This document shows, in pieces, positions 27,466 through 32,046 of a stretch of 64,000 nt of DNA; the stretch's first letter is position 1; every line of letters starts with the position of its first letter. This DNA comes from Candidatus Bathyarchaeia archaeon. GTDB taxonomy: Archaea; Thermoproteota; Bathyarchaeia; Bathyarchaeales; Bathycorpusculaceae. The notes beneath the pieces are model-generated. The model searched no databases, was not told the DNA's origin, and saw nothing but the letters and a program-made list of their open reading frames with translations. Made by a program: the position numbers and the translations under genes. The stretch covers positions 32,001 to 96,000 of the forward strand of contig JBEKHN010000003.1 of assembly GCA_050012255.1 (NCBI GenBank), written 5' to 3'.

Positions 27466-28653
27466 ATGTGGCGGCTGGGGTTCTTTTTCCACGAAATGGG
27501 GTTCGGATTACTCTCGATTTTTCTGCCGCTTTACTTGCTTAAAATCGACGCTGCAAATGGGCTGTTCTACGTTGGGGTAATCACTGCTATCGCTCTCTTC
27601 GCGGCTATTCCTGCCTCTTTCCTCTGGGGTTATTTATGCGACGAGACACGGCATTATAAGCGTTACATCCTTCTTGCGTTCCTCGCGTCAGCCGTCTTGC
27701 TCTGCCTCTTCGCGTTTACGACGGATATAGCTTTGCTGATTGTAATATACGCGATAATGTCGATTTTTCACGTTGCCCATGAAGCTCCGAAAAACATTCT
27801 AATCTCTGAACTGTATTCTCATCAAGACTGGGAGAAGAATTTCGCCTTCTACGAGGGGATCACGGAAGTCGGGACGCTAATCGGTCTGCTGTTAGGCTTC
27901 TTCGCCTCGTATTTTGGGGTTAGTGCGGTGAACACCCTTTTTCTCGTAGCAGGGTTGAACTTCGTAGCCTTCGTTCTCTCTGCAATACTCGTCGTGGACC
28001 CCCCAATGATTTTTGAGAGACGCTTGGTGAGCATCGAGAAGACCGTTGACTTCGCGTCTCACGGTGTCTTCCTGGCTTCCAGAATGGTGGACGGCATAGG
28101 TCTGGATGAGAAATTGAAAAGAGAGAACGTCACAGCCTTCTGCTTCGGACTAGTGCTTTTCTCGCTTGCCACGAGCATACTGTTCACTCCAATGCCCGTG
28201 TTTGTGAACAGCATCGCGCCGGCGGGGTTCGTCTTCGCGATTTACGTGCTCAATTCCGGGGGAGCTATAGGGGGCTACGCATTGGCTGGAAAAAGGTCGC
28301 AGGGGCCAACTGGAAAAGCCCACGTAGCCGGACTAGTGCTGTTTCGAAGCCTGCTTGCCTTCGTACTTCTCGCCGCCTTGAATCTGTCCTCTTTCAACGT
28401 TCTGCTGACCACTGGAATTCTAGTCGTCATGGGATTTCTCTTTGCAGTCTTTATGGTGACGATTCTTGCTCTATCGATGGAGCTTATACCATCGGGCAAA
28501 GCGGGTCTGATCAATGTTCTGATAGGGCTGGGAGGAGCATTCGGCTCGTTTATCGGCCCTTTCATCGCTCAGGTTTCGGGTTTCCTCCAAGTTTTCGTTG
28601 TGGCCGGTGCAATATTCTTCGCTGCCTTCGTCTTCTTCAAGATCTTCGCATAG
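27466..28653 (+). CDS. MFS transporter
   Basis: About 12 hydrophobic segments; WGYLCD.T..YK motif-A-like loop. Confidence 0.9.
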   Translation: MWRLGFFFHEMGFGLLSIFLPLYLLKIDAANGLFYVGVITAIALFAAIPASFLWGYLCDETRHYKRYILLAFLASAVLLCLFAFTTDIALLIVIYAIMSIFHVAHEAPKNILISELYSHQDWEKNFAFYEGITEVGTLIGLLLGFFASYFGVSAVNTLFLVAGLNFVAFVLSAILVVDPPMIFERRLVSIEKTVDFASHGVFLASRMVDGIGLDEKLKRENVTAFCFGLVLFSLATSILFTPMPVFVNSIAPAGFVFAIYVLNSGGAIGGYALAGKRSQGPTGKAHVAGLVLFRSLLAFVLLAALNLSSFNVLLTTGILVVMGFLFAVFMVTILALSMELIPSGKAGLINVLIGLGGAFGSFIGPFIAQVSGFLQVFVVAGAIFFAAFVFFKIFA

Positions 28654-28681: not shown

Positions 28682-30136
28682 TTACTCGACGTGCACTCTG
28701 AAGAGGTCTATGTCTTCTCGCATTTCCGGCGTTGCTTCGAGGAAGTCTCTCACCGCATGTTCAACATCCCTTGACTGTGTCACGTATCTTCCAACGATGA
28801 TTATGTCAGCGCCTTTTTGCAGGGCTTCTCTTCCAGTCTCTGGCACTATTCCGCCTGCCACAGCGATCAGGAACTTTTTGTCCTTGAAGGTCTGCCTAAT
28901 TTCCGGGATGATCTCCAACCCGTGTGTTCTTCCTGTTTCTTGGTCTATGCCCCTGTGTAGGACGATGATGTCGGGGAACTCTTTGATCGACTTCAGTTTC
29001 TTGAGTGCGTCTTCAACGTTCATCATGTCGACCACAGCGTATATTCCGAGTCTCTTTGCCTCGTGAATGAACGAGTCGAGTGTTTCAGGAGCTGCCAGTC
29101 CCGAGGCGACAACGGCGTCTGCCGTTTCGTCGAAGGCCAGGTCAACTTCGACTTTGCCTACGTCCAGGGTTTTGAGGTCTGCTACGAAGAAGATGTCTTT
29201 AGCCACTTCTCGCAGTTCGTTTATCACTTTTGTTCCATATCTCTTGATCAGAGGCGTTCCAACCTCCAGGATTATTCTGTCGCTTCCAGGCAGCTGTGCT
29301 ATCACTTTCTTTGCTCTTTCCACGTCTGGGTTGTCAAGCGAAATCTGCAGGTACGGCGGTCTCCACAGGCGGGGCACTTTGAACCCCATTATTGGATGTC
29401 TGGCTCTGTCCTTGTCGTAGAGGATCTTTTCCAGCGATGGGTACTTTGCTATGGCCCTCTTCAGCGCCAGCTTGGTCGCCCCATAGTTGTAATGGTAGAT
29501 CTTGCGGAAGTCACTTGCTTGAGGACTTACGAAGACGCTGGCCACTATGACCCAGTCGTCGATCTTGTCTCTGGGGATTATTCCGTCTTCCACTGCGTCA
29601 GCAACAGCTTTTGCAACTGCAGCTTGGGCCGGTCCAAATATCTTGTCCACGTCTTGAATGTTTTTTATGGTGACTTTGGGCACGAGCAGCGTGTGCGGTT
29701 TAGGCGGAAGGTTCGGCCTTATCACTGCTAACAAGGGTGTGTGTCCCGCAGACAGGTTGCACATTCCTGCCGCAAAAGCCTCTCCGACCGGCCCGTTTTT
29801 GTCGCCTATGAGCAGGTCTATGTGCGCAACCTCGTTTCCCTCTCCGACTAGCGCCTCACCAATCAAGTATGCATATCCTGATTCTTCGACGGATTCCGAC
29901 AGTAAGTTTGTCGGCAAGCTGTCTGTGACCTCTTTGAAATCTACATCGAATTCTTTGAGCCACGTGTAAAGCGTGTCCCTGTGAATGTTTAAGGCTTCAG
30001 CCGTTCCGAGCACTGTTGGCTTTGTCGGTTTAATTCTTGTAGCAGCACGGCCTTCGGCTGCCTTTTTGGCGGCTTCCGTCAGCATCTTAATGAGTTCTTC
30101 TCTTGTTTCAGGCTTCTTGATGTCGTGTTCCGACAT
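28682..30136 (-). CDS. fae-hps: Bifunctional formaldehyde-activating enzyme / 3-hexulose-6-phosphate synthase with extra N-terminal HTH
   Basis: Fae: [43 protein letters not shown]. Hps: [28 protein letters not shown]-terminus: [17 protein letters not shown]. Confidence 0.95.
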
Positions 30137-30362
30137 TTCTGACTCACAACTGCTATCTAGCTGTGCCGCTGGTATATAAGAGTGTCGGCAGCATTGAAGT
30201 CAGAGGGACCAATAACCATGTGGCCGTCATATTTCTGTCGCCTTTAGGCAGCATGTCGGGTGTTCTTCAGGCGCTACCTGTGGTTTCTGATCGCGAAGTG
30301 TCGGGAACTGGAGGGGCGAACGTGTTTCAAGGACAGCCGGATGTCGGGATGTCTGATGTCAG
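30120..30362 (-). promoter_or_regulatory. fae-hps promoter with TATA box and TGTCGG/CCGACA motif array
   Basis: Minus-strand TTATATA at 30174-30180; hexamers at 30130, 30183, 30254, 30299, 30342; ATGTCG-N5-CGACAT inverted repeat at 30120-30136. Confidence 0.65.
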
Positions 30363-30464
30363 ACTGTATAGTGTGACGGTTGATGATTCTGTTCTCAGAG
30401 CGGCAAAGTCTATATACTCTGAGACAGTGTAGAACGGTGAAAACTGGCTTCCGGAGTTGCCTCG

Positions 30465-30644
30465 ATGTGGTGGAGAGACTTGGTGTTTCTGTTCTTGGTG
30501 ATCGTAGGCTTGGTGTTGTTCTTGTATGGCGCTAACTCCTATGAAGGCACAGTCGGCTGGACCGGCATCGGCCTGCTTGCTGCTGGGTTTTTTGGTTACA
30601 TAGCTTTGAAAGTGTATGAGGCTTCAACAAAGAAGAAAGAATGA
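30465..30644 (+). CDS. Small two-TM membrane protein (59 aa)
   Basis: Hand translation MWWRDLVFLFLVIVGLVLFLYGANSYEGTVGWTGIGLLAAGFFGYIALKVYEASTKKKE; GGAG upstream. Confidence 0.7.
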   Translation: MWWRDLVFLFLVIVGLVLFLYGANSYEGTVGWTGIGLLAAGFFGYIALKVYEASTKKKE

Positions 30645-31035
30645 CTAAGATTCGCCGGTGCTTAACATCCCTGTGTTCGCGTTTTCACTCGTCTAACACG
30701 CATACCCCCTCCCCCTAGGGTGTTAGTACTGCACGTGGGTGCTGGGGAAGGCCCTTTTGACTTTGGGCTGGCTTGAGGCCGAGTGTTTGCAGAGGGTTTG
30801 GCAGATGGTCTCGGCAAGGGTAGTGACTGCGCAATGCGTTTCGCCGTTGCCCCTTTTTCTGGTTTTGTCTGTTCTGTCATCGTCAGCGTTTCCGGGCGTG
30901 TTGCACTATGCTTCCATGTTCTTTCCGTCTAATTTGAGCGAAATCAAGGTGACCTCCTGAGTCTTGAGGTGAAAGGGTCGAGCGTCAGGGCGACTCCGTG
31001 TTTCCTGAGGAGAGAGAAGTTGTCATCCGTTCTTC

Positions 31036-32046
31036 TTAGGTTACTCTGAGCTGTTCTACTTCTTCTTTCCGTGGAACTTGAACACTCAGTGGTTTCTCGC
31101 AGTGTTGCTTGCCGAATTTCACTTGCACATTGCCTTGTTTCTTGTCTGAGTAGTAAGCGGTTAGCTCTGCGGCTTTCTGGATGGCGGTTCTGGTTTTGGG
31201 TCCTTGGAGCAAGGTTATGGGGCTTCCGCAGTCTTGGGCTTCGAAGCAGTAATCATTCGCCATTTTCATTTGAGTCAAGAGCTTGTTTTCAGTTTCGTTC
31301 CTGCCAACTATGATTTTGCTCTTTCCAAACCTGAAGTGTCGTCCAACTTTCAGCAACTGCACGTCTTTCAAGGAGACTCTTCTCTTGTGGTCAAACAGGT
31401 CTTTCAGTTTAGCAGCGAATTCCTTGTACGTTAATAGGCAGCCTCCGCCTGGGCACGAATAGCCAGTTACATTCATCTCTTCAGCAAGCTTGATCTGCTT
31501 CTTTCTTGAGCGGCCTTCGATGCCGAGTAGCGCTTCTCCGTTTACGAAACCCTTGTCTTCGGCTTCAGTCTTCGGCAGCAACCTTGCAGACAGCGGTCTG
31601 AGGATCTTCCCCTTTAAACCTGCTTTCTCCTCTATTAGGCCTAGAGTTCTTCCATGCTGTGACATGGGTCTTTGACCTAAGACTTCGCCGGTGATGATGA
31701 ACAGCGCGCCTGTTTTCTCTGCATACGTCTTGGCCTTCTTCAGCATGAAAATTCTGCAGTCAACGCAAGGGTTCATGTTCTTTCCATAGCCAAACCGCGG
31801 TTTTCTGACAATCCTAAGGTATTCCTCGCCGACGCTGATCGTTTTCAACGGTATGCTGAGGCTCTTTGCCACTTCTGGGGCTCCACAGCCGCCTTTTCTG
31901 CAGAGACAGAAAGGGCTCACAAAGTTAACTGCTTCCACATCTATGCCCTGATCCAGCATAAGCTTCACGGCCAGCGTGCTGTCTAACCCGCCGGACACGA
32001 GGGCTAGAGCCTTTGTCTTCTTGCCTCTCGAAGCCATGGTTTTCAC
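31036..32046 (-). CDS. tRNA thiouridylase-like PP-loop ATPase (ThiI/MnmA-related, DUF814-type C-terminus)
   Basis: SGGLDS, NPCVDC, TGEVLGQRPMSQ, GGCLLT, VGRN..EN. Confidence 0.85.
   Translation of the reverse strand: MKTMASRGKKTKALALVSGGLDSTLAVKLMLDQGIDVEAVNFVSPFCLCRKGGCGAPEVAKSLSIPLKTISVGEEYLRIVRKPRFGYGKNMNPCVDCRIFMLKKAKTYAEKTGALFIITGEVLGQRPMSQHGRTLGLIEEKAGLKGKILRPLSARLLPKTEAEDKGFVNGEALLGIEGRSRKKQIKLAEEMNVTGYSCPGGGCLLTYKEFAAKLKDLFDHKRRVSLKDVQLLKVGRHFRFGKSKIIVGRNETENKLLTQMKMANDYCFEAQDCGSPITLLQGPKTRTAIQKAAELTAYYSDKKQGNVQVKFGKQHCEKPLSVQVPRKEEVEQLRVT

Follow-up and report, generated by a model that had tools for sequence, protein, structure and literature searches.

A Bathyarchaeial Fae-Hps Enzyme with a Helix-Turn-Helix-Like N-Terminal Domain and a CCGACA Array on Its Own Gene: a Candidate Autoregulating Trigger Enzyme

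The Fae-Hps enzyme encoded in the 64,000-nucleotide stretch of Bathyarchaeia DNA analyzed here (the window) is probably an autoregulating "trigger enzyme," predicted to bind an array of CCGACA hexamers on its own gene through an N-terminal helix-turn-helix (HTH)-like domain and thereby to set its own level. An earlier note on this DNA had proposed a DNA-binding enzyme with a Fis/PucR-type HTH; the Fae-Hps, itself apparently intact, does carry an HTH-like domain that is conserved and translated, but Fis/PucR is not the type that matches it best. In the reverse ribulose-monophosphate route, Fae-Hps releases formaldehyde and then captures it.

The enzyme and its N-terminal extension

The gene lies on the minus strand and comprises the following elements, given in window positions:

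28682..30136 (-), whole coding sequence in the order HTH, linker, Fae, and Hps, 484 amino acids, a single open reading frame with an ATG start
29921..30136 (-), N-terminal domain, residues 1 to 72, supported by the alignment, AF2 models, sub-threshold HTH family matches in 19/19 members, and a dN/dS of 0.10
29951..30013 (-), HTH core, residues 42 to 62, from the alignment, AF2 models, and HTH family matches
29870..29920 (-), variable linker, residues 73 to 89, with pLDDT below 50 at residues 76 to 87 and a dN/dS of 0.32
29387..29863 (-), Fae domain, residues 92 to 250 (Pfam PF08714, E 1.3e-69; 1y5y, E 3.1e-43)
28745..29356 (-), Hps (OMPdecase/HUMPS) domain, residues 261 to 464 (Pfam PF00215, E 1.9e-34; HPS structures 9lj9, 3f4w, and 3ajx)

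Residues 90 to 483 correspond to positions 2 to 390 of the 392 positions of the NCBIfam model for bifunctional Fae/Hps (NF009833), with 583.8 bits against a curated cut-off of 274 bits (584.8 bits in the genome-level search of the same model). Since the canonical enzyme model begins at residue 90, about 89 residues stand ahead of canonical Fae-Hps, in agreement with the roughly 85 residues described earlier, and the 19-residue string then quoted as HTH-like was found at residues 45 to 63. In the enzymatic part, the stretch NEVAHIDL is identical in the solved Fae structure 1y5y, and ADLKTLD (residues 319 to 325) is invariant among 18 aligned sequences; taking these to be the catalytic motifs of Fae and Hps, respectively, and considering the equivalog score, the Fae-Hps part is apparently intact. 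The neighbors of the gene are an open reading frame for a major facilitator superfamily (MFS)-like transporter and cellular genes. Close relatives are named simply "bifunctional enzyme Fae/Hps" in the databases, where a precomputed HTH Pfam label is present on 1 of the 120 best relatives, so that the HTH on Fae-Hps is currently hidden by the annotation of the other 119.

The search of species genomes returned 291 loci confirmed by tblastn, the best 80 of which are all titled Bathyarchaeota, Bathyarchaeia, or MCG. Leaving out L088 and L098, which have no HRDT[LM] match, 78 of these 80 loci were analyzable, and the extension is fused to the enzyme in 77 of them, the exception (L044) being a frameshifted fused gene. 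In 41 related genomes, 27 contain one unbroken match starting from query residue 1 to 6, and 3 more contain the gene in pieces.

According to the sequence comparisons, the extension is real coding sequence under purifying selection. The starting Met-Ser column is conserved, with ATG, GTG, or TTG in 20/20 fetched loci, and dN/dS amounts to 0.10 for residues 3 to 72, with values of 0.055 in the Fae-Hps part and 0.32 in the linker (based on 22 of 66 pairs, the other 44 being left out because of saturated dS). Moreover, in two loci (L006 and L018) ATG, GTG, and TTG are all missing from about codon 19 up to Fae, and translation must include the HTH in these cases. A start downstream of the HTH, which the earlier note had named as an outcome that would speak against its proposal, is contradicted by the aligned start codon, by these two loci, and by the dN/dS of the domain. 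It is hardly credible, therefore, that the extension is an annotation artefact, with the true start near the Fae domain (e.g., the TTG of L91) and an untranslated upstream frame. A TTG does occur one codon ahead of IGEA in this gene and in 7 more of the 20 loci, but it is missing in the remaining 12, the open frame is kept across families, and a conserved TATA box lies 42 nt ahead of the upstream ATG.

With regard to the fold, the alignment of the N-terminal domain features the invariant residues K39, P40, T41, L49, H52, R53, D54, T55, L56, W59, E62, and F67. AF2 predicts helices at residues 12 to 31, 42 to 48, 53 to 62, and 67 to 72, and the model of the domain suggests a three-helix core made of a helix, a tight turn, and a recognition helix. 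The structure prediction proposed earlier for the N-terminal residues returned HTH-like helices, with moderate confidence (mean pLDDT of about 63); the full-length model, built on an 18-sequence alignment, is poor overall (mean pLDDT of 63.5) and reaches 81 to 84 at residues 41 to 70.

The Pfam families GP3_package, HTH_23, HTH_28, and HTH_29 each match 19/19 members at an E value of ≤0.05 (best for GP3_package, 6.2e-06), whereas HTH_8 matches 7/19 and HTH_30 10/19, more weakly than the families of small-terminase (TerS) and transposase type; Fis/PucR is therefore not the best-matching type. Furthermore, PHROG 606 (terminase small subunit) matches 11/19 members, and the best PDB profile match is the phage protein 2ao9 (E 0.031). 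In the window's own domain, the only member with bit scores listed, all HTH family matches are under the Pfam curated cut-offs; in particular, HTH_30 reaches 15.2 bits where 27 are required, and the matches listed do not include HTH_8. Among structural comparisons, the top 50 VIA-align matches are mostly HTH DNA-binding domains, with a best Z of 6.0 (4.9 for P22 TerS), values up to 6.0 falling in the range that the tool calls common for helical models, and the Foldseek search against PDB and BFVD gave no match at an E value of ≤0.001. The extension thus looks like an HTH nearest to the phage small-terminase and transposase types, as judged from matches that are all sub-threshold.

Two candidates for a stand-alone version of the domain were rejected: the 75-residue match in G025 lies some 20 nt away from where the L101 sequence stops, probably a contig end, and the one in L044 belongs to the frameshifted gene mentioned above. 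Proteins of 77 to 80 amino acids (P0015 and P0021) are present in the 50%-representative library.

The CCGACA array

Around the start of the gene, the following elements could be recognized, with signed numbers counting from the start codon:

30342..30347 (-), upstream CCGACA at -211, common to the genus
30299..30304 (-), upstream CCGACA at -168, common to the genus
30254..30259 (-), further CCGACA at -122/-123
30236..30241 (-), second site, upstream of the proximal one by 53 bp, with GCGACA here and CCGACA in the majority of relatives
30183..30188 (-), proximal CCGACA adjoining the TATA box, in the BRE position, in 78/78 loci
30173..30179 (-), TATA box TTATATA, consensus tTCCGACAnTtTTATATAcaAg in 78/78 loci
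30130..30135 (+), inverted CCGACA over the start codon (A-TGTCGG on the gene strand), its center 53 bp from the proximal site, with [AG]TGTCGG in 77/78 loci
30023..30028 (-), in-frame CCGACA at +108, corresponding to P37-T38 of the KPTKPT motif, with CCGACA at +96 to +117 in 65/78 loci
29909..29914 (-), CCGACA at +222, corresponding to P75-T76 of the poorly conserved linker, with CCGACA at +205 to +228 in 53/78 loci
29896..29901 (+), second inverted hexamer at +235, in 19/78 loci

The eight CCGACA hexamers span positions 29896 to 30347, and all lie inside the electrophoretic mobility shift assay (EMSA) probe proposed in the earlier note (29890 to 30370). The inferred transcription start is placed from the TATA box alone.

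All 78 loci have CGACA-N3-4-TTWWATA next to the start of the gene, and the 2.35-Mb genome contains this arrangement only once, the stricter CCGACAN3TTWWATA likewise having a single occurrence. At the second site, CGACA occurs at -98 to -112 in 60/78 loci, and for 58 of the 60 the distance to the proximal site is 52 to 54 bp. In total, 260 forward and 17 reverse copies of CGACA were counted over 78 × 450 nt, with about 34 expected per strand, and the median number of hexamers per locus is 5 in -240 to +240 versus 0 in +300 to +780.

The bare hexamer, by comparison, has 904 occurrences when both strands of the genome are counted, and a six-base site is too short for defining a regulon. The weight-matrix scan (13 positions, >11 bits) returned 242 genome matches, the gene's own promoter ranking 16th, and hexamer pairs at 52 to 54 bp are not enriched genome-wide (16 CGACA pairs versus 9 to 17 at the other same-width spacings tested). 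On account of these two results, we claim no regulon.

Within the coding sequence, codon choice indicates a constraint at the nucleotide level. The Ser2 codon, which is part of the inverted copy, is TCG in 78/78 loci, although TCG makes up 16% of the Ser codons in the remainder of these genes, and Pro-Thr is encoded by CCGACA in 146/195 cases in the N-terminal 90 residues versus 10/39 in the rest of the protein. Five of the 53 loci with a copy at +205 to +228 carry CCGACA in another reading frame (+211). However, the hexamers in the coding sequence overlap the conserved KPT peptide motif, and protein and DNA constraints are therefore entangled there.

With one copy inverted over the start codon and others in sense orientation further along the transcript (+108 and +222), the repeats might act in RNA, with AUGUCGG at the start codon pairing with downstream CCGACA of the mRNA and controlling translation. 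This is very improbable in our opinion, because the best-conserved copies (-52 and -105) precede the TATA box and would be missing from the transcript. Moreover, the fold of -17 to +130 has a z of -0.83, with 37/200 shuffles as stable, and the start codon pairs only with a local CGACAU. The Rfam search over 30000 to 31200 at an E value of ≤1 returned only CrcZ, whose score of 13 bits (cut-off, 95) we took as chance.

Parallel fusions and their promoter repeats

The class-level search gave 53 matches that do not start near residue 1, of which 38 were fetched and 15 left out. The fetched loci comprise 18 genes with a ribbon-helix-helix (RHH) extension, 2 with a resolvase-type HTH (HTH2), 17 with no extension, and 1 unanalyzable locus (L130). 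RHH_1 or ParD-RHH is above the cut-off in 3/6 RHH extensions tested (26.1 bits for RHH_1), and the resolvase-type HTH is above it in 1/2 (26.6 bits for HTH_7). Three unrelated DNA-binding domains appear to have been joined to the Fae-Hps scaffold in Bathyarchaeia.

Each fused class has its own promoter repeat, whereas the 17 unfused genes have no common one. In particular, CCGACA is found in 78/78 loci of the class with the domain described above (HTH1), in 1/18 RHH loci, and in 0/17 loci with no extension; GTGACAC is found in 18/18 RHH loci, 0/78 HTH1 loci, and 0/17 loci with no extension; and TGCGGCA is found in 2/2 HTH2 loci. In the tree built on 121 Fae residues, with L011 and L020 left out of it and of the full-length alignment, HTH1 forms a single clade (97/88) and one or two changes are required for RHH, so that the covariation of domain and motif is confounded by lineage-specific conservation of promoters and amounts to about three evolutionary events, not to 115 independent loci.

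This confounding, together with HTH matches that are all sub-threshold and the fold-search results given above, could favor the idea that another transcription factor of the order recognizes CCGACA and that the domain is an HTH-resembling module for protein-protein contacts, for oligomerization, or unrelated to nucleic acids. We regard this as unlikely. The sister lineages hold bona fide DNA-binding folds in the same place, as indicated by the RHH_1 and HTH_7 scores, and the most conserved residues of the domain (H52, R53, D54, T55, L56, and W59) are situated in the predicted turn and recognition helix. Furthermore, a diverged second copy of the gene in G119, with an altered recognition helix (HRD replaced by QLD) and the KPT motif lost, has a promoter without CCGACA, and in 4 genomes without Fae-Hps the N-terminal domain is absent as well.

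The domain could also bind DNA with the main purpose of keeping the enzyme at the chromosome, for instance to clear formaldehyde near DNA, the promoter motif being incidental or a preferred docking site. Formaldehyde damages DNA, the hexamers continue past the start codon although a classical operator would have no need of sites there, and the genome-wide occurrence of the hexamer on both strands would suit such a role. Yet the TATA-adjoining arrangement is invariant in the loci analyzed and unique in the genome, and three different DNA-binding domains pair with different repeats in the same promoter position, which a general tether does not need; parking as the main function is accordingly a decidedly improbable explanation. 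The motif at the gene's own promoter and the domain swaps accompanied by their own motifs in sister lineages are best explained by autoregulation through DNA binding that is sequence-specific.

Proposed mechanism and known systems

According to the model that we favor, a small tri-helical HTH on a flexible linker would recognize CCGACA, arrayed by the TATA box, about 53 bp further upstream, inverted over the start codon, and within the initial 230 bp of coding sequence. Fae pentamers and Hps dimers would bring several HTHs together on one enzyme particle; such a multivalent display through Fae oligomerization, already envisaged in the earlier note, fits the five chains per entry of the Fae relative 1y5y (10 chains in 2 PDB entries). 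One particle could hold several same-face sites together, 53 bp being about five helical turns, possibly by wrapping or looping of the DNA, although at about 18 nm this distance exceeds the spacing of neighboring subunits in a Fae-sized ring. The bound promoter would be shut or modulated, and the level of the enzyme would in this way feed back on its own transcription. As for the sign of the regulation, sites over the BRE and the start codon suggest repression, and binding may in addition depend on formaldehyde, tetrahydromethanopterin (H4MPT), hexulose-6-phosphate, or ribulose-5-phosphate.

In the RHH class, the distal copy is 51 to 52 bp from the proximal one in 11/18 loci. A bolder and rather doubtful extension of the model can be put forward tentatively, in which the particle, formed by Fae pentamers bridged by Hps dimers, would organize the DNA of its own gene in a nucleosome-like or terminase-like manner. 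Five to nine CCGACA copies, phased at about 53 bp, would be held by terminase-type HTHs along a stretch of some 450 bp that begins ahead of the TATA box, includes the start codon, and reaches the HTH codons, and the coding sequence would double as operator. In this view, the enzyme oligomer, rather than the DNA-binding fold, would set the geometry of the operator, as suggested by the distal-proximal spacing of about 52 bp kept in both the HTH and the RHH versions.

With respect to canonical archaeal Fae-Hps (NF009833/PRK13307, 5,6,7,8-tetrahydromethanopterin hydro-lyase/3-hexulose-6-phosphate synthase), residues 90 to 483 are alike end to end; the canonical model and the 17 sampled Bathyarchaeia genes begin at Fae, different from the window protein with its 89 extra HTH-like residues. 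Proline utilization A (PutA) is the classic trigger enzyme, with an N-terminal ribbon-helix-helix. The resemblance lies in the enzyme being headed by a DNA-binding domain through which it would target the promoter of its own gene, and the RHH-Fae-Hps proteins of sister lineages have the same fold type in the same position. However, the chemistry is unrelated, the window domain is an HTH and not an RHH, the promoter is an archaeal one with TATA and BRE, no redox or membrane switch is known here, and binding is predicted.

BirA, NadR, and the archaeal RbkR are enzymes with an N-terminal (winged) HTH that repress the genes of their pathway. They share with the window protein the presence of catalysis and HTH in one polypeptide, and the operator would again sit at pathway or own promoters. 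Nevertheless, they are winged-helix proteins on dimeric palindromes, whereas here single hexamers, mostly direct and about 53 bp apart, reach into the coding sequence, and the scaffold is a presumed pentamer/dimer enzyme. The best sequence likeness, although sub-threshold, is to the N-terminal HTH of phage TerS (GP3_package, PHROG 606, PDB 2ao9 and 3p9a), in which HTHs displayed round an oligomeric ring engage repeated DNA sites, a concept that the proposed Fae-Hps particle has in common with it. An identification of the window protein as a phage small terminase was rejected, given that it has no TerS oligomerization core, residues 90 to 483 are Fae-Hps, and the neighboring genes are cellular. 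Finally, HxlR and FrmR are separate formaldehyde-responsive regulators of bacterial ribulose-monophosphate and detoxification genes; the control of formaldehyde-handling genes at the level of transcription is similar, but these regulators are stand-alone proteins of unrelated folds, while here the DNA-binding domain is within the enzyme.

In the portions of the literature returned by full-text searches on Fae-Hps, HTH/RHH, trigger enzymes, and Bathyarchaeia, no DNA-binding Fae-Hps is described. Bathyarchaeia are among the most abundant uncultured archaea of sediments and peat, and, to our knowledge, almost nothing is known about their gene regulation. The protein, motif, and probe coordinates reported here provide a concrete candidate regulator-operator pair for a lineage without genetics. 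Operator copies in codons and a five-turn phasing common to two unrelated folds would offer a natural system in which quaternary structure dictates promoter architecture. If the prediction is true, an archaeal C1/pentose enzyme joins the short list of trigger enzymes, and the fact that DNA-binding domains have been coupled to Fae-Hps on at least three occasions speaks for the importance of a tight control of the enzyme by itself.

Architecture, fold and conservation of the N-terminal extension

The gene under study encodes both enzyme domains in one frame, as follows.

28682-30136 (-): HTH-Fae-Hps coding sequence, single 484-aa ORF with an ATG start
Residues 92-250: Fae domain (Pfam, E 1.3e-69)
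Residues 261-464: Hps domain, OMPdecase/HUMPS fold (Pfam, E 1.9e-34)

Positions 2-390 of NF009833, the NCBIfam equivalog for bifunctional Fae/Hps (392 positions), align to residues 90-483 with 583.8 bits (cut-off 274). The canonical enzyme thus does not include the first 89 residues. This confirms the extra residues ahead of the Fae domain, and thus the N-terminally extended Fae-Hps, described in the earlier note, whose quoted helix-turn-helix (HTH) string was located at residues 45-63.

For the window's own domain, all matches to curated HTH families score under the family cut-offs. In an alignment of the extension domain (A1, 19 sequences), GP3_package (best E 6.2e-06), HTH_29, HTH_23 and HTH_28 are each matched by 19/19 members, whereas HTH_8 (Fis) is matched by 7/19 and HTH_30 (PucR) by 10/19, so that the Fis/PucR typing first proposed is not the best fit. 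Moreover, terminase small subunit families were matched in PHROGs (phrog_606 in 11/19 members), and the top PDB profile match is the phage protein 2ao9 (E 0.031). Structure prediction, which had been suggested as a check, gave HTH-like helices with AF2 (residues 12-31, 42-48, 53-62 and 67-72; mean pLDDT 63), and the full-length AF2 model has pLDDT 81-84 at residues 41-70 and below 50 in the linker at 76-87. Foldseek returned no significant structural match for the N-terminal domain; the top 50 of VIA-align were nearly all HTH DNA-binding domains (AraC-type, Z 6.0; TetR, 5.5; sigma-28, 5.1; P22 small terminase, 4.9), with Z in the range that the tool warns is common. We conclude that the domain is HTH-like and nearest to terminase and transposase types. 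Searched against 1.84 billion representatives, its profile gave 94 matches at E<=0.001, comprising fused-gene fragments, stand-alone 77-80-aa proteins, terminase-like phage proteins and proteins with 4-8 tandem domain copies. The library proteins P0014, P0017, P0027, P0030 and P0033 (314-641 aa) carry such tandem HTH copies, each repeat spanning about 50 residues.

The start codon occupies a conserved "MS" column in 20/20 fetched loci, and in L004, L006, L013 and L018 the frame opens only zero or one codon ahead of it. In L006 and L018, ATG, GTG and TTG are absent from about codon 19 to the Fae domain, and the HTH must therefore be translated there. The mean column identity of A1 is 67%, with K39 P40 T41, L49, H52 R53 D54 T55 L56, W59, E62 and F67 invariant. 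From 22 usable of 66 sequence pairs, dN/dS was estimated at 0.10 over residues 3-72, 0.055 over Fae-Hps and 0.32 over the linker (73-89). Translation starting downstream of the HTH, which the earlier note had named as fatal to its reading, is rejected on the "MS"-column start codons, the conserved upstream consensus and the dN/dS of the extension.

One unbroken match to the fused protein, starting at query residue 1-6, was found in 27 of 41 related genomes, and in 3 of the 41 this gene is broken up into two or three pieces. Four genomes of the window's order without Fae-Hps are also without the N-terminal domain. With each prokaryote species represented by one genome, a scan yielded 291 tblastn-confirmed loci; the best 80 are all titled Bathyarchaeota, Bathyarchaeia or MCG, and among their 78 analysable loci the domain is fused to Fae in 77, the sole unfused case (L044) being a fused gene with a frameshift. 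In four assemblies (G001, a single-contig genome, G004, G008 and L044) the gene falls into two or three frames through frameshifts, which are either assembly errors or pseudogenes. Public databases hold at least 6072 relatives at E<=0.001 (8000 candidates scored); the best 120 of them have lengths of 467-527 aa and no other name than "bifunctional enzyme Fae/Hps", with a precomputed HTH label on one.

As for the surroundings, a 395-aa multi-pass membrane ORF (27466-28653, +), which by eye we take to be MFS-transporter-like, runs convergently towards fae-hps, at its 3' end. In 13/20 related loci an ORF of 394-436 aa is found at the same place and in the same orientation, and in L010 a 197-aa ORF at this place is cut by the locus end. 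The gap upstream of fae-hps (30137-31035) is unusually long, about 900 bp; it lacks any ORF of >=100 aa and gave no notable Rfam match, and two small ORFs lie in it.

30465-30644 (+): hydrophobic 59-aa ORF
30662-30880 (-): 72-aa ORF

The genome's second Fae copy (G000, contig C9; locus L142, 336-1814, +) makes up the C-terminal domain of a protein of 492 aa, whose first ~300 residues resemble, by eye, a DapA/DHDPS-type aldolase; its relatives keep the same open frame (~495-505 aa).

The CCGACA array

The upstream consensus tTCCGACAnTtTTATATAcaAg is common to 78/78 aligned loci, and CGACA lies 46-58 nt 5' of the start codon in all of them. A distal CGACA occurs 52-54 bp above this proximal site in 58 of the 60 loci with a copy at -98..-112. 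The window contains eight hexamers inside 452 bp, besides one variant.

29909-29914, 30023-30028, 30183-30188, 30254-30259, 30299-30304, 30342-30347: sense CCGACA
29896-29901, 30130-30135: inverted CCGACA
30236-30241: GCGACA variant

The orientation is nearly uniform: over 78 x 450 nt, CGACA is found 260 times forward and 17 times reverse, with ~34 expected per strand. CCGACA-N3-TTWWATA occurs once in the 2.35-Mb genome (window 30173-30188), and is therefore not the general BRE of the lineage. Furthermore, the start codon context is [AG]TGTCGG, an inverted CCGACA centred 53 bp from the proximal site, in 77/78 loci. The Ser2 codon is TCG in 78/78 loci, compared with a TCG share of 16% (189/1190) among the other Ser codons of the same genes, and the first base of codon 3 is invariably G, whichever residue is encoded (E, G, D or A), which shows constraint at the nucleotide level. 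In this genome, the first 18 nt of the coding sequence (30119-30136, -) form a local palindrome, ATGTCG-GAACA-CGACAT, which supplies an extra CGACA at +12 used by a predicted mRNA hairpin.

The array continues into the coding region, with sense copies at +96..+117 in 65/78 loci and at +205..+228 in 53/78, 5 of these 53 in another reading frame. Pro-Thr is encoded by CCGACA in 146/195 cases within the first 90 residues versus 10/39 in the remaining protein; the frequency expected from codon usage over the remaining gene is ~10%. The median number of hexamers per locus is 5 (range 3-9) in -240..+240 versus 0 in +300..+780 of the same genes. Pairing of the copies at the RNA level was considered as an explanation, but the mRNA fold (z = -0.83) speaks against it.

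Extension classes and their promoter motifs

Among 121 Bathyarchaeia genomes, 72 have Fae-Hps at E<=1e-60. The match begins at residue 1-7 in 23; these are from families f1, f6 and f7, which belong to the window's order, and include G047 (family f19), which lies outside that order and was listed only as the same class. For extension typing, 38 of the 53 remaining rows were fetched: 18 have a different extension of ~56 residues, M.EEKGLVRAPGRITQEQYRFLEELV..GRF.SVSEAVRAAI, which is a ribbon-helix-helix (RHH); 2 (family f17) have a third type, a resolvase-type HTH (HTH2); 17 have no extension and 1 was unanalysable. Among six of the RHH extensions tested, RHH_1 scores 26.1 bits in L127 (cut-off 20.5) and ParD-RHH exceeds its cut-off in L133 and L118; in L124, of the resolvase type, HTH_7 scores 26.6 (cut-off 23.8) and HTH_23 26.1 (24.6).

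Each class has its own promoter repeat, HTH1 denoting the window's type.

Loci with each motif within 200 nt upstream
CCGACA: HTH1 78/78; RHH 1/18; HTH2 0/2; no extension 0/17
GTGACAC/GTGTCAC: HTH1 0/78; RHH 18/18; HTH2 0/2; no extension 0/17
TGCGGCA/TGCCGCA: HTH1 1/78; RHH 0/18; HTH2 2/2; no extension 0/17

No 7-mer is common to more than 4 of the 17 unfused genes. In a tree on 121 Fae residues, the HTH1 sequences form a single clade (97/88); the RHH label is explained by 1-2 changes and the full set of four labels by 4. The covariation should thus be counted as about three events and not as 115 independent observations. A diverged second HTH-Fae-Hps copy in genome G119 (L126), with HRD changed to QLD, KPT absent and a promoter without CCGACA, is a natural control that supports the link between domain and motif. 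In G047 (L122) the domain is kept and CGACA still adjoins the TATA box; the arrangement there is a weaker ACGACA-TATA, and the start reads ATGTCA, not ATGTCGG.

In the RHH class, a proximal motif pair, one helical turn apart, lies just 5' of the TATA box, with a distal copy 51-52 bp above it in 11/18 loci; the five-turn spacing is the same in the RHH and HTH classes. CCGACA and GTGACAC have a GACA core in common, and the distal copy ~52 bp away is kept in both classes (window 30183-30241; L107, L133 and others). This hints that one domain took the place of the other while the operator layout was kept in part.

A candidate autoregulatory enzyme

We consider autoregulatory DNA binding by HTH-Fae-Hps probable. 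The reading of the earlier note is partly supported and considerably strengthened by the conserved HTH-like domain with its gene-specific CCGACA array. Two alternatives were considered, namely that a separate factor binds CCGACA, and that the domain tethers the enzyme to the chromosome without regulating. Under autoregulation, the N-terminal HTH would recognise CCGACA; a protein bound at the proximal site, which overlaps with the position of the BRE, and at the inverted site, which spans the start codon, would be expected to hinder TFB/TBP or polymerase and so result in negative autoregulation, a repressive sign suggested by archaeal promoter geometry in general. PDB entries of Fae relatives contain five chains each (1y5y, 2 entries and 10 chains; 8ub7 group, 9 entries and 45 chains) and those of Hps relatives two or four, so that the enzyme particle may carry several HTHs, each on a flexible linker. 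At a distance of 53 bp the sites face the same side of the DNA, which would be compatible with cooperative wrapping or looping.

A full-text search, as far as the literature is open to it, found no description of a DNA-binding Fae-Hps. Trigger enzymes, in which a DNA-binding domain is fused to an enzyme, are already known in principle; within the literature so covered, what appears new is the enzyme and the lineage concerned, the threefold recruitment of DNA-binding folds and an operator array reaching into the coding sequence. By analogy with the enzymes PutA and BirA, it is plausible that regulation of Fae-Hps would be linked to formaldehyde, H4MPT or sugar phosphates.
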